Below are positions 3,966 to 22,712 of a stretch of 64,000 nt of DNA, one piece after another; positions within the stretch are counted from its first letter, which is position 1, and every line of letters starts with the position of its first letter. The stretch lies in NCBI GenBank assembly GCA_964427615.1, contig CAYRUR010000001.1:119303-183302 (forward strand), written 5' to 3'. This DNA is from an uncultured Gammaproteobacteria bacterium (GTDB lineage: Bacteria; Patescibacteriota; Microgenomatia; Levybacterales; GWA1-39-11). A model generated the notes under the pieces. The model did not search any database and was not told where the DNA came from. It worked only from the letters and a program-made list of their open reading frames with translations. A program made the position numbers and the translations under genes.

Positions 3966-6900
3966 TAGCTAAAACAATATCATATGCTGAATACAGTATG
4001 GAGCCAGCTGAAGTCTATAATGAGTCTCATGTGTCAGAAAGTGGAAAACTTTCCTCTAGTGGTACTTCTCATGAACATCAAAAGGGAAAAAGACCCTTTC
4101 TTCAAGTAGTTGCTCGAGATGGAGAGGCTGTAAGTGCTACAGGACAAGATAGCTTAGATGATGTAGCCGGTCCTGAACCTATTCTTTTTCCAAGCTACCT
4201 TCAAGAAGAACCCTCACCACTTTCTATAAATTCTCAAGAAAAAGGAAAGGTAAAACACGACCTCACACCTCATGAATTATTTGAAGAAGAAAGGTGGGAA
4301 GAATCTTCTTTAGAAGAGAAAATAAGAGAACGTGTGAGTCAAGTAAAAAGTAAAAGAGAAATGGAAAGCTACCTCAGTAAAAATGGTCCTTTAGTAAATG
4401 AAATGCGAAAAGCTATTCAAGAATATGCTAGTTTGCGACTTAATAATATAAGAGAGATAGATCGTATGACCGCAGAACTAACTGGAAAATTTTACCAACA
4501 GCTGGAAGAGGCAATTCATTCTATTGATGGTACTTTACTGGAAGAAGAATGGTTGCAAGAAGCTGAATCAAAACTAAATCCCTTTATTTACGGACTGCTG
4601 CATGCAAAAAATGAAGTAGAGGCATTGAGAATGGAGACAAATGTCTCCAATCCTTCCCCTGAGCCTAGTGGTAGTTTAAGTGCTACTACATCTATGCAGC
4701 CAGAGGAAGAAGGACCTGCGGGTGGTGGGGGAGCTGGTGGAGGAGAAGGAGGCGGCGGAGGAGCTGGTGGAGGATTTGAAGGAGGCTTTGATTATTGGTA
4801 TATCAGCCCTGAAAGAAAAAGGAGAAATCCTGAAGATATAGAGGATTTAGCGGTGGGAATTATGTTTTCAGACCCTCAAAAATGGGGAAGTCTTATGTAT
4901 GTGCGCGAGCGCTATGAAAGTGCTCCAGGAGAACGTGATGGAGCTATTGAAATAGTAGAAAATGGTACAACAAGAATATTAACGCAAGGAGAACATCCGA
5001 TGTTTGATACTGTTTATATACCAAATGAGGGAGAAAGAATTACCTTGAAAGATGGAGATCAAGTTATAGATGAAGAAGTTGGAGCGTCAACTGAACAAGG
5101 TAGAGTAAGAGGAAAGACTACAGAGATAGAAGTTTTAGAAATGAATAGATATATTATGCATGATGGACAAAAATATGAGGTTGGAACTTATGAAATAAGA
5201 AGAATTAAGGGAACTAACGATGTTGTGGATATTGATCCTCGAGATATAAAAGGAAAAATTACAGAGGTATTTAACAAGGATAACTTTTTAAGGTGGGATA
5301 GAGAGCGGGTAGTAACCATTGATATGCAAGATCCTTTTGCTCCGCAAAAATTTTATTCTGAAGTAGATGTGAGTGATCCTAACTGGCTGCGGGGGCATTT
5401 TCCAATGGGACAACTTATGAAAGAAGACAGATGGTGGTTGCTTAAAAATGGAGAAAAAGTTACCGATTTACAGGATGCAACTGTCGACGTGCTTTCTGGA
5501 GCTGGAAATATTCTTAATGGAGGAAAAGAATATAACTTTGTAATGCCTAAAGAATCAGAACTGGTAAAGTATCTCGATGGGGTATATTCTCAGAATACAT
5601 GGACACGAGAATCGGGTGGTATTAGTTATCTTCGTAGGATTTTTGAAATGCCACAAAATTTAAGTGATCACGGAGAATATGATGAGGTTGGGGGAGATAT
5701 TAAAGTTGGGAGTGCTATTAGAAGCATGACTTTGCATTGGTACTACTCGACAGATTTTGAAAAACTAGTGGAGTTATATGGTGAAGATTATACTTTTTTT
5801 AAACGTTCTTATTGGGAAAATGCGCTAAGCAAAGTTGCAAAACAAACAAGTTTTAAAAGTGACTTATCAGAAGAAGAGCTAAGAGCATCAGGTGATTGGG
5901 GTGGGCTTGTTCAATACGATATAAATACCTTTTTCAAAGGGGATGAGGATACTATGGATATCTTTAAAAGAAACAATGATGGGTCATTTGTATTAGAGAA
6001 TGGGAAAAAAGTTGTAGATCCTCAGAAGGCTATGGAAATAGTTAAAAAAATTAACATCTTTGTTCCTCAAAGACCTGACGCAGATAAGTTGGTTGTGAGA
6101 GATGTTTTAAAAAATGGTATTGGAGAATTTTATGGCCTTCAAGATGATAAAGACAACCTCAATTTCGCTGAACTAATCGCTTTTCGGATTTGTTATCCAA
6201 CAGGAATTAATGCCAGGAATGATATTGTACATGCAGGCATGGACGCTTGGGTAAAGTGGCAACGTACTTTTTGGTACCGTAATAAGCAATTGGATGGAGA
6301 TAGAGGAGGATCTGCCGGAAATTACTATAATATGCAAATTTTTAGACAACTAGGAGCAGATTTTTTTACAGGGATTGATACATTAACGGGTAATTCAATT
6401 CTCCAACTTATGGAGGAGGCAGAAAAAGAAGTTAGAAGAGATAGTGAAAATAATAGAGGTGTGAGGACACAAAAAATTTTGGATACCCAAAAAAAGTTGC
6501 GGTTCTCAGCTGATTCTCAGAGACAATTTCTTTCAAATCAAATTAAAAATGCTGCGGGAATGTACGAGAGTCTCACTGACCTAAAAGAAATAAGCTTCCA
6601 AAAATATTCAAAACTCGTTGAGGGTAGACTGGAAATAGATGAAGCAGCGTTTAGTGAAGACCTTAAAGGAGGAGTAATAAAACCTTTGCGTTATATGATT
6701 AGTACTTGGAAACAGCTTGATTTTGGAGAAGAAGAGAGAACAATGATTCCAATAATCAACGAGAAAGGAGAAGCAAAGGAGGGAGAATATAAGACAGTAA
6801 CAAGGCTTGAAGCATATTTTGGAGAAGCAACAGCAGCAGTTTTTAGGAATGATAAGGCCTGGGATTTTGGAGATGCATTAAAAGGGAGAATAGACAGTCT

Positions 6901-7522
6901 TTCCGAGGCGGATTCACGTAAGGCAATAGAAGATTATCTGTCATTTCTTGTTAACCCTAATCCCGAAAAAGATGAAGATAAAGGAAAAGCAGATAAAACG
7001 GCTAAAAAATTAGCATCAGCATACTCTCAAGAATTTATAGGAAAAGATTTTTCAGAACTCACTAGCATTGAGAGAAAGCAACTTTTAACTAAATTAACTG
7101 AAACAAAAGGAATGCTTTCCATTGGAGAAGCAAAAGTAGTAAATGATGTACATAGAACTCATCTTTTTAAATATGCAGTGGCATTTTACGCAGGTACTCA
7201 ATTGCTTGCTCATAGAAAAAATGTTAGCCGCAATTATTTTGAAAAATACGACATTATAGAAAGTCGTACCTTTTTACGTCTTCTTGATTCTATTCCTGGT
7301 AAAGCAATTTTTGATGAAGATGATCTGAGAAATACGCGAGTTGATGGAAATTTCTTTGGAAAAGATATGTATGGAAGGGACTATATGGAGTTTATTAAAG
7401 CACTGTCTAATACTACGACAGGTAAATTATGGACTGGTCACTTAATACTTTTGCTTTTAGGTGCAATGAGAGAAGCTTTTGGAGAGTCTACAGAAGAACT
7501 TACAAAAGGAATTGCTGCTTAA
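3923..7522 (+). CDS. Very large (about 1170-1200 aa) soluble protein of unknown function with an internal poly-Gly tract
   Basis: Uninterrupted 3.6-kb ORF with no transmembrane segments and acidic, coiled-coil-like N-terminal regions. Low-complexity GPAGGGGAGGGEGGGGGAGGGFEGGF tract near nt 4715-4790. A start at 3923 would overlap the upstream gene by 43 nt, so the ATG at 3998 (MEPAEV) is the more likely start. Confidence 0.6.
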   Translation: MLFFYNVRMRERLTLAKTISYAEYSMEPAEVYNESHVSESGKLSSSGTSHEHQKGKRPFLQVVARDGEAVSATGQDSLDDVAGPEPILFPSYLQEEPSPLSINSQEKGKVKHDLTPHELFEEERWEESSLEEKIRERVSQVKSKREMESYLSKNGPLVNEMRKAIQEYASLRLNNIREIDRMTAELTGKFYQQLEEAIHSIDGTLLEEEWLQEAESKLNPFIYGLLHAKNEVEALRMETNVSNPSPEPSGSLSATTSMQPEEEGPAGGGGAGGGEGGGGGAGGGFEGGFDYWYISPERKRRNPEDIEDLAVGIMFSDPQKWGSLMYVRERYESAPGERDGAIEIVENGTTRILTQGEHPMFDTVYIPNEGERITLKDGDQVIDEEVGASTEQGRVRGKTTEIEVLEMNRYIMHDGQKYEVGTYEIRRIKGTNDVVDIDPRDIKGKITEVFNKDNFLRWDRERVVTIDMQDPFAPQKFYSEVDVSDPNWLRGHFPMGQLMKEDRWWLLKNGEKVTDLQDATVDVLSGAGNILNGGKEYNFVMPKESELVKYLDGVYSQNTWTRESGGISYLRRIFEMPQNLSDHGEYDEVGGDIKVGSAIRSMTLHWYYSTDFEKLVELYGEDYTFFKRSYWENALSKVAKQTSFKSDLSEEELRASGDWGGLVQYDINTFFKGDEDTMDIFKRNNDGSFVLENGKKVVDPQKAMEIVKKINIFVPQRPDADKLVVRDVLKNGIGEFYGLQDDKDNLNFAELIAFRICYPTGINARNDIVHAGMDAWVKWQRTFWYRNKQLDGDRGGSAGNYYNMQIFRQLGADFFTGIDTLTGNSILQLMEEAEKEVRRDSENNRGVRTQKILDTQKKLRFSADSQRQFLSNQIKNAAGMYESLTDLKEISFQKYSKLVEGRLEIDEAAFSEDLKGGVIKPLRYMISTWKQLDFGEEERTMIPIINEKGEAKEGEYKTVTRLEAYFGEATAAVFRNDKAWDFGDALKGRIDSLSEADSRKAIEDYLSFLVNPNPEKDEDKGKADKTAKKLASAYSQEFIGKDFSELTSIERKQLLTKLTETKGMLSIGEAKVVNDVHRTHLFKYAVAFYAGTQLLAHRKNVSRNYFEKYDIIESRTFLRLLDSIPGKAIFDEDDLRNTRVDGNFFGKDMYGRDYMEFIKALSNTTTGKLWTGHLILLLLGAMREAFGESTEELTKGIAA
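4714..4791 (+). repeat. GGn/GGA low-complexity tract encoding a poly-Gly linker inside the 1199-aa ORF
   Basis: ggtgggggagctggtggaggagaaggaggcggcggaggagctggtggagga: short direct GGN/GCT repeats that are slippage-prone. Confidence 0.6.
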
Positions 7523-17713: not shown

Positions 17714-18460
17714 TTACTCGTCGTTGAGTTGGATGCTGAGTAGGGCGGGATTGAGAACACCGCCGTTCTCGTTAGCTAGCTCGCCCTCGTTCCCGATTTG
17801 GGTGTCGAGGTTGTGCCAACGACGGAGCTGTTCCCCGTGTTTCCAGCAACGAGCGAGCATTGTGACAGCAGCGCCGAACATGAAGCCTGTGATGCCTTCA
17901 AGGTCCGCTTCGTGCGATGTAGCGGAAGCTACCTCTTCGAGGGTCTTCCCGTTAGATATCTCGACCTGCATGAGTCGCGCCCATCGTTGAGCGTATGTGA
18001 TAACGGCACCGCCGTAAGGATCTCGGTTGGCCAGCATGGCTTCTTCCCAAGCATCTGGGTTAGACTCCTCCATAGGAGGAGCACCTTTGAGCTTCGCCTC
18101 CAGAGCATTGCGCTTGGCTTTAGCTTGCGCCTCGTACTCAGCTTGCAGTTCCTGGCGTCTGCGCTCGTTCTTGGCTTCGACCTGGTTGTCATTCTCCTTC
18201 TCCTCGTCGGTAAGGACAAGGTTTGGGTAAGGACCGACGTTGGGGTCGATATAATGATGGAGCGCCCGATGCCAATCCCGAAAGATAAGATCAGGACTAG
18301 AGTCCTTGCGAACACTAACCCTTACCTCATTGAAGTCGAACGTAATGAGGCACCCATCTTCCTCGGCTGATAGAGCGATAGCTTCAACGATGGTATTGCG
18401 GATATGTGCTCCTGCACCAACCTCAAAGACAATTTCCTTCTTTCGCCAAAAGTTACTCAT
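17714..18460 (-). CDS. Hypothetical protein encoded on a compositionally foreign (GC-rich) segment
   Basis: 248-aa ORF in a stretch visibly far more G+C-rich than the rest of the window. GGAGG RBS 8 nt upstream of the ATG. Acidic, Ala/Glu-rich helical protein of unknown family. Spurious antisense ORFs in this stretch fit high GC. Confidence 0.55.
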   Translation of the reverse strand: MSNFWRKKEIVFEVGAGAHIRNTIVEAIALSAEEDGCLITFDFNEVRVSVRKDSSPDLIFRDWHRALHHYIDPNVGPYPNLVLTDEEKENDNQVEAKNERRRQELQAEYEAQAKAKRNALEAKLKGAPPMEESNPDAWEEAMLANRDPYGGAVITYAQRWARLMQVEISNGKTLEEVASATSHEADLEGITGFMFGAAVTMLARCWKHGEQLRRWHNLDTQIGNEGELANENGGVLNPALLSIQLNDE

Positions 18461-18836: not shown

Positions 18837-19073
18837 TTATATCAGCCGTTTGTTACGAAATGCAAAGCCAGAACCTGTTTTTAAGTAGTTTTCAAATGAA
18901 AGTGCTTTCTTTTTAGTAGAAAATGCAGCGTAAAAAATGAGAGTAATAGGACGAAGGTTTTTAGTTGATTCTACTTTACCATTTTCGTGAGCCAAAATTC
19001 GTTGTTTCAGGTTATCTGAAAAGCCATGATAGTAAAAATTATCACTTAGTTTGAGAATGTACACATAGTACAT
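18837..19073 (-). CDS. GIY-YIG nuclease-family small protein (UPF0213/YhbQ-like)
   Basis: MYYVYILKLSDNFYYHGFSDNLKQRILAHENG matches the GIY-YIG signature (YxVYIL...G.YYxG.T.NL.RR...H). Length 78 aa. Confidence 0.75.
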   Translation of the reverse strand: MYYVYILKLSDNFYYHGFSDNLKQRILAHENGKVESTKNLRPITLIFYAAFSTKKKALSFENYLKTGSGFAFRNKRLI

Positions 19074-19238
19074 ATGTTTATTGTATAGTAAGTCCCACTA
19101 CACTTCCACTTCCGCTAAAGCTCCAGTGGACAAGAAAGTTTCGTGGGACACACTTCGCAGAGGCCAATTGAGGGAGTAGTGGAATATTGAGTGGCTGTGC
19201 CACACGAAGCTCTGTACTGTAAAGTACGGAGCGAAGTG

Positions 19239-19646
19239 TGGAGATGGGGAGGAGTGACCTCCCGTCCAAAAAATACAAATCACAACGTCTACAAGCATAG
19301 TCAGTTTTTAAGTGTCGTCATATCCTTATCCAACTGACAGGAAAAAATATGACCAAGGCTTTTTAAGAGCACAAAAGACAAGCCAAATCTTTTGCTCTTT
19401 CCTCACCTGGGTTATTGCCTATAAGGAAGCGATGAGGGACTCATCTTATAGACAGCTCGCATTAAGCTGCGAATGCAAAAGCGGGAGTTACCCCAACTTT
19501 TGGCATGGCATCAGCAAAAACTTGCCTGATACCGCGGCTGATGGATTTACCTTCAGCATGTATTATTTGATCCTGTTTTATGACGCATGAATCAACGTCA
19601 GCTTGCTGTTGTAAAAGTGCATTTCCTGTCGAATCAATTCATCCCC
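19239..19646 (-). ncRNA. ssrA: tmRNA (SsrA)
   Basis: Read on the minus strand, the 5' end GGGGAUGAAUUGAUUCGACAGGAAAUGC matches the tmRNA consensus GGGG.UGA.U.GGAUUCGAC.GG. The 3' end GGACGGGAGGUCACUCCUCCCCAUCUCCACA forms a T-arm and an acceptor stem. The acceptor 5'-GGGGAUG pairs with 3'-CAUCUCC, giving the G3:U70 Ala identity pair. An internal tag-like frame ends ...PAFAFAA-TAA and is followed by a hairpin. The gene abuts smpB. Confidence 0.7.
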
Positions 19647-20106
19647 GTCGTGAAAATCGCTTCAGCTCTTCTTGTGCTTCTCTGTCCAAATCTCTTTGTC
19701 TTAACTCTTTTTTGCGTTCAAATTTCTTTTTTCCTTTGACTAAGGCAATTTCAAGCTTGATTAAGACTCCCGTAGTATAAAGGGCGGTAGGGATGATTGT
19801 CAAGTTACCCTGATCCATTTTTGATTTTAGGGCAAGAATTTGTTTTTTATGCAGTAACAGTTTGCGAGTTCTGCCTTCATCATATCCATCGGTGCGAGCG
19901 AATTGGTATGGATAAATTTTAGCATTCACCAAATGTGCTTCTGAATTCATAATTCGCACATACGATGCAGAGAGATCAGCATGGCCTAGTTTTACTGCTT
20001 TTACTTCTTGTCCGGTCAGCGCAATACCTGCTTCTAATTTTTCTAAAATAGTAAATTCTGCTGGTGCTTTTTTATTTACAATTCTCATATGCCCCTTTGC
20101 TTTCAA
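19639..20106 (-). CDS. smpB: SsrA-binding protein SmpB
   Basis: 155 aa; EAGIALTGQEVKAVKLGHADLSASYVRI...LLLHKKQILALKSK is a typical SmpB core. Its last codons overlap the tmRNA 5' end. Confidence 0.9.
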   Translation of the reverse strand: MKAKGHMRIVNKKAPAEFTILEKLEAGIALTGQEVKAVKLGHADLSASYVRIMNSEAHLVNAKIYPYQFARTDGYDEGRTRKLLLHKKQILALKSKMDQGNLTIIPTALYTTGVLIKLEIALVKGKKKFERKKELRQRDLDREAQEELKRFSRRG

Positions 20107-20332
20107 AGTTTAAATACATAATACCAAACGGAGCTTTGTATGGGTAGTATTGTGAGCTTGTAATGTCAGTGCTGCTTTCGTTTTGAAAGCTACGGTAGGC
20201 ATATACAAATTTGTAATACAAAGCAGAGTGATATAAGTAGGTGTATTGTAGCGCAAATAGGGTAAAATGTGAAAGAGTACAAGTTACGACAAAAAAGAAT
20301 TGTTTGTAAGCCTTACATTACTTACACCATTT

Positions 20333-20368
20333 CCTCTCCCTTTCTAAGGGAGAGGATGAAGGTGAGGG
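20333..20368 (+). repeat. Left imperfect terminal inverted repeat flanking the DUF559 gene
   Basis: cctctccctttctaagggagaggatgaaggtgaggg matches the reverse complement of 20735-20771 (ccttctccctttttaagggagaaggtagggatgaggg) at about 31 of 36 positions. Each copy also contains its own hairpin. Confidence 0.6.
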
Positions 20369-20380
20369 TTGATACATACG

Positions 20381-20776
20381 ATGCCAAACCGTAGAAATGA
20401 GGAAAACATACCTGTTGCCAAGAAGCTGAGAAGGAACCAAACTAACTCTGAAAAATTATTATGGTCTTATTTAAGAAATAGGAATATTGATGGGGTAAAA
20501 TTTAGACGACAGTATCCAATAGGAGTGTATGTTCTTGATTTTGTAAGCATTGAAAAGAAACTTGTGGTAGAAATTGATGGAGGACAACACAATGAACAAG
20601 ATCATAAGGAGTATGATGATATACGTTCATCTTGGTTACAACAAGAAGGGTTTCGAGTATTGAGGTTTTGGAATAATGAAATTTTAGAAAATAGTGAAGG
20701 AGTGGTTTTCAAAATAAGAGAAGAATTAGGTAAACCCTCATCCCTACCTTCTCCCTTAAAAAGGGAGAAGGAGTAA
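20381..20776 (+). CDS. DUF559 (Vsr/restriction-endonuclease-like fold) domain protein
   Basis: LRRNQTNSEKLLWSYLRNRNIDGVKFRRQYPIGVYVLDFVSIEKKLVVEIDGGQHN...FRVLRFWNNEI is the characteristic DUF559 pattern. An alternative TTG start lies at 20369. Confidence 0.8.
   Translation: MPNRRNEENIPVAKKLRRNQTNSEKLLWSYLRNRNIDGVKFRRQYPIGVYVLDFVSIEKKLVVEIDGGQHNEQDHKEYDDIRSSWLQQEGFRVLRFWNNEILENSEGVVFKIREELGKPSSLPSPLKREKE
20735..20771 (+). repeat. Right imperfect terminal inverted repeat (lies inside the last 13 codons of the DUF559 ORF)
   Basis: See left repeat. The sequence ccctcatccctaccttctcccttaaaaagggagaagg encodes PSSLPSPLKREKE. Confidence 0.6.
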
Positions 20777-20858
20777 ATTAAGACAGCTTTTCTTAAAAGG
20801 GAAAGAGACGCTACTTGGGAGAAAATATTTTAGGCAGAGTTCTGGTAGGAGTTTTCGT

Positions 20859-22712
20859 TTAGAGTGAAAAAGTATAAATTTTGGAGTTGCTTACAACATA
20901 TAACGTGTGATTTGGTTCATCTACTGCAAATGAGGTGGCATTTTTAAAAATATCTGAAGTATATTGTTTGGCAAACGAACCACTTTTTTGGATAGATACC
21001 ATTCGTTTTCCAGAGGGGTCAAGTACATAAAGATTTGCATAATCAACATCGGTGTAAATACTGCTTCCTTTGCCAATAGAGGTGGGAAGCCCTTGTATAG
21101 AGAAAGCATCTTTGCTGCCTCGTGTATATTTTTGAATACTTCCATCATCTAAAAGAACCCAGACAGAGGCATCAATACTAAATGATACGGGATTTTTAGA
21201 AAAATCAGGTTCTTGGCTAAAATAATCAGTGTCATTATATGCTTCAGGAATAAATTTTTTAATAGTATTTTGGCGCGTATCCAGCACGTAAATGTTATTT
21301 CCAAAGGTACTAATACTTTTTGGAGCTTGTAGGTCTTCTATAATTGTTTCGTTTTCTTTTTCATTCTTTTCTTGTTTGATAACAGAGTCATTAGTAAGCA
21401 TGTAAAAATAGTCTTCATCTGCACTAATATCTACCACCCGTGTTGATTCACCTTCAAAAAATTGTTCTATTTCTCCGCTTTTAGAAAGTAAAACAGCAGA
21501 AGTATTATTTGTTCCTGTGGCAATAATACTGCCCCCTTTAATAGTAATATGCCCAACTTGTTTTATTTTTTCCTGAGATGGATCAAAAAAGAGTTTTTCT
21601 CCTCCCAGTTGTTCTCCTCCTCCTAGTTTTTGAATCTCAGCATTTACTTTTTCAAGGAGGGTATCTAATTGTTCTCGTTCAGGAGTGCCTTGAGGGAATT
21701 TGTCCTGTTCTGCAAGGAGTATTTTTTTGGCTTCATACAGTGTTTCAAGAGCAAGTGGTTTATTTAAAGATGCAAGCGCTATTGCTTCATCCAACTGTTG
21801 CTGGGTAGGTGCAAGAATATGGGCAAACTCTTCTTGTAACTGTTTTTTTTCTTTATTCATGTTTTCATGTATAATTCCGCCTATTAATATACTTAAAAGA
21901 ACAGCGATACCAATACCAATAAGCACATTTTTTTTCAAAAGCACCTCTTTTTTTGGTATATGAAGGTTTTTGATAAAAGAAGAAAGAGTAGCAGGATGAG
22001 GTATGCGCTCTTTAAGGGTGGTGATAAAAGATGGTTTTAGGGCTTCTGGTTTTTCTTGTTTTTGCTCTTCGTCTTTTTCTACTTCTTCGAAAGTTTCCTC
22101 ATCTGCTAAATAGCTTGCATCGTGGCTTTGAATTTGCAGGACTATAGCTGCTTCTGTGCCTTGTGGTTCTGTACTGATAAGCGGAGCAAGTGTTTCTGCA
22201 ATATCCAGGATGTTGATAGTTTTGGTAAAGGTTTGATAGAGGGAGGGATCTATCTTCTGGGCAAAGCCTGGCGTTTGCAGAAAAAGCATATCGTTGTGAC
22301 GTAGCTCTCCTGAAAAGCCAGTAATGCTTTGTGGTTCTGCTTCTGCAATAATTCCAATAGTCTCATCTCTTTTTAAGAGTACTTTTCCGGCTGATGAGAT
22401 AATAATATAAGCAACTCCTTCAATGATCGTTACCAAAACAAGTGAGTGCTCTATTTCAGCAGGGATAATAGATACAGTATTTTCTACTGCTTGTTTTATG
22501 GTAGATAGATTTTTTTCGTCAATTGCAAAGTATTCTCGTTGTAGTTTTTCAAGGACTTCTTTTCCTAAAGTAGTGGGTTGGATATCTGATTCACCCTGTT
22601 TTTTAAGGCTGACTACAACAAACACATGTAACGTGGAAAAAGCCTGCGCCCAGGTTTTTTCTGTTGTATTTGAAACGAGTTTTTCGTGAACAATAGTATA
22701 GTTTTGGTTCAT
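20859..22712 (-). CDS. Hypothetical bitopic membrane protein with a C-terminal beta-propeller-like repeat region
   Basis: One central transmembrane helix (VLIGIGIAVLLSILIGGII), a coiled-coil segment, and repeated YVLD / YMLTND / YVVSN beta-strand motifs. Unknown family. Confidence 0.5.
   Translation of the reverse strand: MNQNYTIVHEKLVSNTTEKTWAQAFSTLHVFVVVSLKKQGESDIQPTTLGKEVLEKLQREYFAIDEKNLSTIKQAVENTVSIIPAEIEHSLVLVTIIEGVAYIIISSAGKVLLKRDETIGIIAEAEPQSITGFSGELRHNDMLFLQTPGFAQKIDPSLYQTFTKTINILDIAETLAPLISTEPQGTEAAIVLQIQSHDASYLADEETFEEVEKDEEQKQEKPEALKPSFITTLKERIPHPATLSSFIKNLHIPKKEVLLKKNVLIGIGIAVLLSILIGGIIHENMNKEKKQLQEEFAHILAPTQQQLDEAIALASLNKPLALETLYEAKKILLAEQDKFPQGTPEREQLDTLLEKVNAEIQKLGGGEQLGGEKLFFDPSQEKIKQVGHITIKGGSIIATGTNNTSAVLLSKSGEIEQFFEGESTRVVDISADEDYFYMLTNDSVIKQEKNEKENETIIEDLQAPKSISTFGNNIYVLDTRQNTIKKFIPEAYNDTDYFSQEPDFSKNPVSFSIDASVWVLLDDGSIQKYTRGSKDAFSIQGLPTSIGKGSSIYTDVDYANLYVLDPSGKRMVSIQKSGSFAKQYTSDIFKNATSFAVDEPNHTLYVVSNSKIYTFSL

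Follow-up and report, generated by a model that had tools for sequence, protein, structure and literature searches.

A DUF559 endonuclease gene nested between inverted BoxC/PIT/TM repeats: a candidate selfish nuclease-repeat module

The REP-associated tyrosine transposases (RAYTs) and the REP/REPIN repeats represent a long-lived partnership between a nuclease and a repeat. In the present study, we analyzed a 64,000-nt stretch of contig CAYRUR010000001.1 (hereafter the window, meaning this stretch at its full length), in which a gene for a DUF559 (YcjD-like) endonuclease is nested in a "tails-in" inverted pair of triplex-forming repeats of another kind, which have been described under the names BoxC (Bergler, 1992), PIT, for potential intrastrand triplex (Hoyne and Maher, 2000), and TM or TM_ECO (Holder et al., 2015; PMC4666352), and which are called TMs below. 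By analogy with the RAYT-REPIN systems, the 440-bp unit formed by the gene and its two repeats may be a selfish nuclease-repeat module in which the nuclease is functionally coupled to TMs, a reading that we regard as evenly balanced between being right and being wrong.

The TM was described as a 37-nt motif, of which Escherichia coli K-12 has 23 copies and a set of 262 proteobacterial genomes 3610, and its E. coli consensus was found by circular dichroism and nuclear magnetic resonance to form a class II purine-motif intrastrand triplex in vitro (PMC4666352). According to the same study, TMs block polymerases in vitro, possess neither promoter nor terminator activity, and often occur as inverted doublets, while TM loci are associated with instability and are more rearranged between E. 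coli strains; it was stated that neither a mobility function nor a common neighboring gene had been found for TMs. TM #9 was placed between fabI and ycjD in Table S2 of that study, the main text of which contains neither the word "endonuclease" nor the word "ycjD". A connection between DUF559 and TMs was not made in the literature that we found on DUF559, ycjD, or intrastrand triplexes. The closest earlier hint is in Milman et al. (2023; PMC9881135), where "DUF559 domain-containing protein" is enriched among the model-predicted targets of programmed inversion (odds ratio 14.3 in their Table 1, without comment), as is "Endonuclease domain-containing protein" (odds ratio 9.6); this enrichment is what an inverted-repeat pair flanking DUF559 genes would produce, and the TM pair accounts for the appearance of DUF559 in that screen. 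The repeats themselves were already known; what is new is the family-wide nesting of the nuclease gene between TMs, which is undescribed in the literature searched.

The gene and its two arms

The two repeats, or arms, that flank the DUF559 gene (Table 1) had been recognized in a first-pass annotation of the window as imperfect inverted repeats of about 36 bp, and a repeat search returned the same pair, 36 nt each (20335-20370 and 20733-20768), with 81% complementarity in an ungapped alignment; the residual mismatch is mostly a 1-nt indel. The internal hairpin noted at the same time was also present, with a perfect 11-bp stem ending in TT/AA and a 3-nt loop in each arm, but it makes up only two thirds of the motif, the remainder of which is an adjacent mirror-repeat third strand. 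In the left arm, the G-rich strand of which is the top strand, a pyrimidine segment b (TCCTCTCCCTT) and a purine segment b' (AAGGGAGAGGA) form the hairpin, and the third segment a' ((A)GGTGAGGGTT) follows. In the right arm, the G-rich strand is the bottom strand, and segment a (AACCCTCATCC) precedes the hairpin (CCTTCTCCCTT-AAA-AAGGGAGAAGG) on the + strand. The second loops, between the hairpin and the third segment, are 3-4 nt long. Relative to the left arm, the right arm (read as its reverse complement) carries one extra base in each of b (CCTCT on the left, CCTTCT on the right), b' (AGAGG and AGAAGG), and a' (GGTGAG and GGATGAG). The difference of one base recurs in each of the three segments and is compensated three ways within the one locus.

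Folding of the window arms as single-stranded DNA gave energies between -11.4 and -13.6 kcal/mol, with z from -4.4 to -4.9, and 0/200 shuffles were as stable; the left arm fold has a value of -13 kcal/mol (z = -4.4) and the right arm fold a value of -11.4 kcal/mol (z = -4.5). The tail next to the hairpin is the mirror image of the purine arm, being its reverse and not its complement, as exemplified by GGGGGAAGG followed by GGATGGGGG. When G*G:C, A*A:T, and T*A:T were scored as allowed purine-motif triplets, with the direct register as the control, a' folded back on b' gave 11/11 allowed triplets in each window arm and only 7 (left) and 6 (right) in the direct register. The mirror register was better in 50 and worse in 5 among 93 arms (p = 2e-9), and this covariation appears to favor the published triplex reading over a G-quadruplex made from the four G-tracts of b' and a'.

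The published TM_ECO pattern, CCCTCNCCC-N3-6-GGGNGAGGG-N3-GGGNGAGGG, is not matched by the window arms: the left arm reads CCTCTCCCTT-TCT-AAGGGAGAGG-ATGA-AGGTGAGGG, and the right arm is the corresponding variant. Both were recovered by a covariance model built from 69 arms of other loci, with the window arms excluded from training, and we assign them to BoxC/PIT/TM as divergent, AT-shifted members. The hairpin core pattern occurs at 2 places in the 64 kb, both of them arms, with 0.34 expected, and the expectation for the full left arm is 0. The G+C content is 49-51% in the arms, 33% in the interior of the open reading frame (ORF), and 37.5% in the window. An Rfam scan of 19000-21500 returned a tmRNA and one sub-threshold chance match, and the arms corresponded to no described RNA family. 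A role of the arms as intrinsic terminators was rejected after a promoter/terminator scan, which showed no terminator-like site there.

The space between the arms is wholly occupied by the DUF559 gene, and the unit, taken between the outer edges of the two hairpins, is 440 bp long. The left arm ends 10 nt ahead of the ATG, and its purine tail, AGGTGA..., precedes the start codon. At the other end, the last 13 codons (20735-20773; PSSLPSPLKREKE) are the right arm read through, as the first-pass annotation had proposed. The protein keeps 18/18 of the columns that are invariant in a 30-sequence alignment (D53, E64, D66, G67, G68, Q69, H70, R82, R95, F96, W97, and N98 among them) and retains the conserved core D...ExDGGQH...R...RFWN. 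The NCBIfam model of E. coli YcjD, PRK09767, scored 113 bits against a cutoff of 218, so that the window protein belongs to that family without being an equivalog. Among solved structures, a close match was found only with an uncharacterized Neisseria gonorrhoeae protein (PDB 3HRL, E = 4.8e-24); the family profile also matched the catalytic domain of I-Bth0305I (3R3P), an EDxHD homing endonuclease, over approximately 60 residues (E = 7.6e-4), which makes this enzyme the nearest relative that is both structurally solved and characterized, and the window protein showed no Y1_Tnp match. YcjD-like proteins were previously placed in the PD-(D/E)XK superfamily near Vsr (Kosinski et al., 2005), and a DUF559 gene has been equated with the EDxHD family (PMC9403480); a biochemical characterization of the YcjD-like DUF559 subfamily was not found in the literature searched. 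We predict the window protein to be a Vsr-type PD-(D/E)XK nuclease.

Recurrence of the arrangement across the DUF559 family

A total of 3915 homologues were found, of which the 120 best (approximately 50-63% identity, from many phyla) formed the homologue set, and 80 homologous loci, one genome per species, were analyzed, including loci from Melainabacteria, Nitrospirota, Chloroflexi, Omnitrophota, Desulfobacterota, Alpha-, Beta-, and Gammaproteobacteria, Deinococcus, Elusimicrobia, Neisseria, and Legionella. Most of these loci have a hairpin with a G-rich tail upstream of the gene and its reverse complement at the gene's 3' end. With a strict hairpin-plus-tail detector, 44 loci had an upstream arm and 48 a downstream arm, and 31 loci had the two together. 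After covariance-model matches had been merged, by manual reading, approximately 44/80 loci were canonical, with 6 long-spacer variants in addition, and the single compact cassette of gene and inverted repeats that had been postulated for the window is accordingly the layout of about 44-50 of the 80. Since nhmmer has a lower sensitivity than the covariance model, counts obtained with it are lower bounds: the orientation of the nearest arms was (+,-) in 27 of the 80 loci, and TM density was 3.05/kb within approximately 160 nt of the gene against 0.066/kb in the other 730 kb, a difference of approximately 46-fold. Unit sizes range from 405 to 472 bp, the distance from the end of the left arm to the first in-frame start codon has a median of 4 nt, and the stop codon lies within or past the right arm in 34/42 loci. 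The TM(+)-DUF559-TM(-) arrangement is a compact and conserved module, and a repeat arm inside the gene's own coding end is the rule for the DUF559/YcjD-like family. Three loci (L053, L055, and L069) are inside-out, and a few of the 80 are without any TM nearby. In the inside-out loci, a C-rich-first (R-type) arm lies upstream and a G-tail (L-type) arm downstream of the gene, an order that is not derivable by simple inversion of the canonical unit.

The C-terminal tails of the homologues, such as PSPQPSPLGGERE, PHPNPLPQERE, and LTPTLSHQWERE, are translated repeats, as are some N-termini (...PLPLAGEGQGEGE). Approximately 53/120 homologues end in this way, in three frames (approximately 20, 19, and 14 of 120), and the tail of the window protein, the uniqueness of which had been raised as a question, is therefore nothing peculiar to it. 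Since the tails read the repeat in three frames, the DNA is conserved and not the peptide, and selection acts on the DNA structure of the arms and on their three-strand compatibility. The translated repeat also accounts for the PSPxPSPxxGEG-type tails of DUF559 proteins, a common annotation artifact.

Each locus maintains a likeness between its two arms. Left and right arms (the latter read as its reverse complement) share more sequence when they come from one locus than when they come from different loci, with identities of 0.83 and 0.71 (permutation p<1e-4), and arms likewise match other TMs of their own locus (0.83) better than TMs elsewhere (0.74, p = 1e-4); protein identity and arm identity are weakly correlated (Mantel rho = 0.16, p = 0.004).

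Several variants of the arrangement were observed among these loci. In L035 (5414-6322), a BIME-like array of 13 strictly alternating TMs with a period of approximately 72 nt directly follows the DUF559 gene. A betaproteobacterial metagenome-assembled genome (MAG; L066) carries two DUF559 cassettes with their own TM arms within 2 kb (5001-5351 and 6979-7383), the second of which was noticed only through a (+,-) TM pair with a 328-nt spacer. Another short repeat (cgactaagcccgcaagcgg.caagtcgctgg) is inserted into, and interrupts, the right arms of L030 and L059 (approximately 5340-5440 in each), and is common to the two MAGs concerned, one of Gallionella and one of Sideroxydans. In L013, L017, L075, L008, and L073, TM variants have 20-35 nt, sometimes with a small hairpin, between the hairpin and the third segment, and in L013 and L017 this insertion is found in both arms of the cassette. 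One 228-aa homologue (P0002) scored 230 bits, far above others of similar identity, which suggests a tandem or fused double DUF559 protein.

The association was also examined from the side of the repeats, in 120 loci that were picked from metagenome contigs by the exact TM core GGGAGAGGGTTAGGGTGAGGG without reference to genes. This sample holds 178 TMs, the neighboring pairs of which are tails-in in 22 cases, tails-out in 22, and direct in 10; 20/22 of the tails-in (+,-) doublets are gene-less, with spacers of 18-100 nt. A DUF559 homologue adjoins 3/125 TMs, always in the canonical orientation, and (+,-) pairs spaced 320-380 nt, found without the gene as bait, hold a DUF559 ORF in 3/3 cases (L175, L208, and the second L066 cassette). 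Most TMs are thus solitary or sit in doublets without a gene, and the only gene that was seen nested in a doublet is DUF559. The arms had originally been taken for terminal inverted repeats specific to the element; they are instead copies of a dispersed repeat.

Table 1. Coordinates of the cassette, its arms, and the neighboring features in the window.
Feature	Positions	Strand	Evidence and remarks
DUF559/YcjD-like endonuclease ORF, 131 aa	20381-20776	+	Pfam PF04480, E = 1.6e-40, profile positions 6-108 of 109; start ATG 20381, alternative TTG 20369, stop codon 20774-20776
Left arm, TM copy	20329-20370	+	covariance-model match 20329-20369, 36.7 bits, E = 7e-7
Left arm, hairpin	20332-20356		perfect stem and loop
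Left arm, segment b	20332-20342		pyrimidine
Left arm, loop	20343-20345		
Left arm, segment b'	20346-20356		purine
Left arm, spacer	20357-20359/60		
Left arm, segment a'	20360/61-20370		third segment
Right arm, second TM copy	20733-20774	-	covariance-model match 20734-20774, 36.2 bits, E = 1e-6
Right arm, segment a	20733-20743		
Right arm, spacer	20744-20746		
Right arm, hairpin	20747-20771		perfect stem and loop
Spacer between smpB and left arm	20107-20328		probably outside the cassette; sole sigma-70-like promoter match of the region, - strand, 20273 to 20245, towards smpB
smpB, left neighbor	19639-20106	-	Pfam SmpB, E = 6.6e-43
tmRNA, beyond smpB	19236-19646	-	Rfam tmRNA, 122.5 bits
Lineage-specific ORF, 617 aa, right neighbor	20859-22712	-	ORF list; bait for cassette-less relatives

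Mobility and the alternative readings

Regarding the behavior of the unit, two paralogues from one MAG (L025 and L029, approximately 94% identical) share homology, the start of which coincides exactly with the left hairpin's outer edge and which extends through the gene into the right arm, while the DNA outside is unrelated. Target-site duplications, a check suggested by the first-pass annotation, were absent from the window, and at 25 loci the longest direct repeat at the boundaries had a mean length of 1.64 nt against 1.68 nt in a permuted control; this absence is expected for mobility by break repair or homing. The same annotation noted that DUF559 genes are known to occur in multiple scattered copies in some genomes, which was not the case here: for each of two proteins (P0091 and P0089), the identical copies on 8-10 contigs have a single context with the same neighbors in the same orientation. 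The cassette is normally stable and single-copy and is not an active insertion sequence. Three further loci (L005, L010, and L036) are orthologous and uniform in orientation, and are uninformative on the boundaries of the element. Phages were rejected as a likely vehicle, with 3 weak matches in 50,697 phage records, and PADLOC, which yielded a marginal match to a DpdF fragment alone, gave no evidence of a known defense system.

The distribution of the cassette is patchy. Relatives of the window genome, the neighboring protein of which is 35-41% identical to the window 617-aa ORF, share the synteny DUF5657 - 617-aa gene - smpB, and the gap between the 617-aa gene and smpB is 28-37 nt in three of them (L086-L088) and 752 nt in the window. 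No DUF559 gene was found in the relatives at the smpB site, and no TM even with the covariance-model filters off. Within this small AT-rich genome, the window cassette has the appearance of a lone copy that was acquired and now lies between the 617-aa gene and smpB. In two other relatives (L084 and L085, 7849-8308), smpB is inverted relative to the 617-aa gene, and the tmRNA gene seems to lie in the 460-nt gap; the smpB-tmRNA block thus appears to be rearranged within the lineage.

Other small genes were noticed around smpB. A 78-aa GIY-YIG ORF (18837-19073, - strand) lies just past the tmRNA gene in the window and is a second small stand-alone nuclease gene near smpB, and one relative (L086) has an HNH_3 gene (6859-7236) at the corresponding side of smpB. 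The neighborhood of tmRNA and smpB may be one where small selfish nuclease genes accumulate. Further upstream, at 18196-18235 on the + strand, a crude hairpin-plus-tail detector flagged CCTTCTCC-N10-GGACAAGG followed by GGGTAAGG, which was unsupported by the covariance model and nhmmer and is probably a chance match.

In E. coli, ycjD, the product of which is 51% identical to the window protein, lies between sapF and fabI in 3377/5426 complete genomes, and the eefRABCD operon occupies this site in the rest, an alternative that has been described (PMC12817139). The gene ends inside a TM arm, and another TM lies approximately 165 nt downstream; eef-carrying genomes have no TM at the sapF-fabI site. 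E. coli was considered as a clean empty-site model and rejected, the eef strains having no TM there and the ycjD segment being a replacement without a canonical left arm. In a spread sample of E. coli, the number of TM-like places had a median of 21 (12-32, n = 37) in ycjD+ genomes and 9.5 (2-21, n = 22) in ycjD- genomes (Mann-Whitney p = 2e-8), ST131 and other B2-type strains having 2-5; Holder et al. counted 29 TMs in strain 55989 and 1 in IHE3034 (PMC4666352). These counts fit a dependence of TMs on ycjD, but are confounded by phylogroup. Upstream of E. coli ycjD (L082, 2817-3060; L090, 2690-3283), a 16-bp perfect inverted repeat, CACCTCATTCTGACAA-N11-TTGTCAGAATGAGGTG, which is unrelated to the TM, overlaps the start of the gene, and downstream its 3' end recurs in part, accompanied by a decayed arm, before an intact TM. 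In K-12, the right arm has a 12-nt deletion, which corresponds to the "12-nt longer ORF" of PMC12817139.

The first-pass suggestion of a small selfish or mobile unit receives indirect support from the absence of the cassette in relatives, the L025/L029 boundary, and presence and absence in E. coli; the duplications that a conventional insertion would leave were not found. If the unit is a selfish nuclease-repeat module, the encoded Vsr/EDxHD-type nuclease would recognize TMs, either as a duplex or as a folded hairpin or triplex, and would nick or cut there; the break would be repaired from a TM-flanked donor, with the arms serving as homology. Repair of this kind would copy the gene into gene-less TM doublets, amounting to homing without target-site duplication, and/or TM doublets may be propagated as non-autonomous partners, the gene-less doublets being either non-autonomous derivatives or targets. 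In a stronger form of this proposal, the YcjD-like DUF559 nucleases are the enzymes that recognize and propagate TMs, and the 405-472-bp unit represents a new class of mobile element in its autonomous form, a reading which we put forward tentatively and consider somewhat more doubtful than not. Such a class would combine a Vsr-type PD-(D/E)XK nuclease with non-B-DNA (hairpin or triplex) ends and move by break repair without target-site duplication, and it would be spread over most bacterial phyla, including small genomes like those of the candidate phyla radiation.

A number of observations weigh against the proposal of a selfish module. The enzymatic action of DUF559 proteins on TMs is, so far, hypothetical, and the triplex was seen in vitro and not detected in vivo (PMC4666352). 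Neither the pattern nor the covariance model found further TM copies beyond the two arms in the 64-kb window and a 12-kb second contig, and hence the part of the proposal that invokes many non-autonomous partners cannot be shown for the window genome. The boundary of the unit was seen in one paralogue pair, from a MAG; there was no sign of recent transposition among the contigs that carry P0091 and P0089; and the cassette-less relatives are distant, with 35-41% identity of the neighboring protein. The E. coli ycjD locus, being without a canonical left arm, is a segment replacement and not a clean TM-bounded insertion, and the difference in TM counts between ycjD+ and ycjD- strains is confounded by phylogeny; TMs persist in strains without ycjD, numbering 14 in the O157 genomes of the sample and as many as 21 in other strains. 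In the sample chosen by the repeat, only about 2% of TMs adjoin a DUF559 gene.

It is also conceivable, if unlikely, that the association is passive, with TMs being hot spots of instability or elements that act in cis on expression (as a ribosome-binding tail, an mRNA-end hairpin, or an insulator), where a small and possibly toxic nuclease gene was captured and kept without acting on TMs. The greater rearrangement of TM loci between E. coli strains (PMC4666352) would agree with this, as would segment replacement with partial duplication of the gene 3' end at ycjD, the AGGTGA-type tail of the left arm, which lies 0-13 nt before start codons and could act as a Shine-Dalgarno sequence, and the many TMs without DUF559 nearby. 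However, a general hot spot should capture many gene families, whereas DUF559 alone was found inside the 320-380-nt (+,-) pairs (3/3), the orientation and spacing are nearly fixed across phyla, and the two arms of a locus resemble each other; a cis-acting role is further opposed by the earlier finding of no promoter or terminator activity (PMC4666352) and by the lack of a terminator-like site at the window arms.

We consider it improbable that the nuclease instead benefits the host by removing or nicking the TM hairpin or triplex at replication, with the gene positioned between TMs for autoregulation and not for mobility. The fold is that of the Vsr-type repair nucleases (PMC1189080), the loci are stable and single-copy, and polymerases are blocked by TMs in vitro (PMC4666352), all of which a repair function would explain; but the patchy distribution of the gene, which is absent from TM-bearing close lineages (E. 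coli O157 and B2) and present in a genome segment without other TMs, would not be expected of it, and nor would the paralogue boundary at the arm edge of L025/L029.

A programmed-inversion switch, in which the arms serve as recombination sites that flip the gene for phase variation, is highly improbable. A pair of inverted repeats, one of which lies within the coding region, has a geometry that would suit a switch, and DUF559 is enriched in the screen of Milman et al. (2023; PMC9881135), the prediction of which rests on inverted-repeat features and not on observed inversions. Against it, the window holds no recombinase gene nearby, a single orientation was found in L005, L010, and L036 and in the 8-10 contigs of each of two proteins, and the same repeats mostly exist as solo copies and gene-less doublets.

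A coincidental hairpin pair unrelated to the gene, which the low copy number in the window alone might have suggested and which the first-pass annotation had associated with homologues lacking a flanking repeat, is refuted by the occurrence of the same arrangement in dozens of phylogenetically distant loci, by window arms with E values of about 1e-6 from a model trained on other loci, and by the many phyla that carry the same flanking repeats.

Comparison with known systems

DUF559/YcjD is a very large family with thousands of homologues and a solved structure, to which a function has not been assigned, and its link with TMs provides testable hypotheses in both directions, the repeats gaining a candidate cognate nuclease and the nuclease a candidate substrate. 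The closest members in terms of the protein, E. coli YcjD (b1289) and the N. gonorrhoeae protein of 3HRL, belong to the same family as the window protein; the E. coli locus differs from that in the window in having no canonical left arm, in the unrelated 16-bp inverted repeat found there, and in the right-arm deletion of K-12.

The EDxHD and free-standing homing endonucleases resemble the DUF559 genes in a detectable sequence similarity of the catalytic domain, in being small genes of a selfish type with a patchy distribution, and in lacking target-site duplications. In contrast to them, the DUF559 gene lies outside introns and inteins and encodes no long DNA-binding extension, and its presumed target is a repeated structured element, not a unique conserved gene. 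Miniature inverted-repeat transposable elements and insertion sequences likewise present inverted ends around a single small gene, and the gene-less doublets resemble their non-autonomous derivatives; however, the unit described here has no recognizable transposase and no target-site duplication, and its ends are an independently dispersed repeat.

The arms share with BoxC/PIT/TM the succession of a C-rich stem, a loop, a G-rich stem, a short loop, and a mirror G-rich stem, as well as the same type of consensus and the occurrence as inverted doublets. The published work on these repeats describes them without an associated gene, whereas here they bracket a nuclease gene.

In its organization, the unit is most readily compared with RAYT-REP/REPIN, in which a usually single-copy nuclease gene lies between two inverted hairpin repeats, the same repeat is found scattered elsewhere, singly or as inverted doublets, and the repeats vary by genome, with the flanking copies matching the resident family. 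The differences are that RAYT is an HUH/Y1 transposase and DUF559 a PD-(D/E)XK Vsr-like nuclease, that the TM has a third, triplex-forming segment, and that the TM theme is conserved across phyla while REP/REPIN are lineage-specific. The TM-DUF559 unit may at most work like a RAYT-REPIN system, of which it is not a member, as it has no HUH transposase; if the selfish-module reading is correct, it would be a second, mechanistically different example of the nuclease-repeat partnership that RAYT and REPIN represent.

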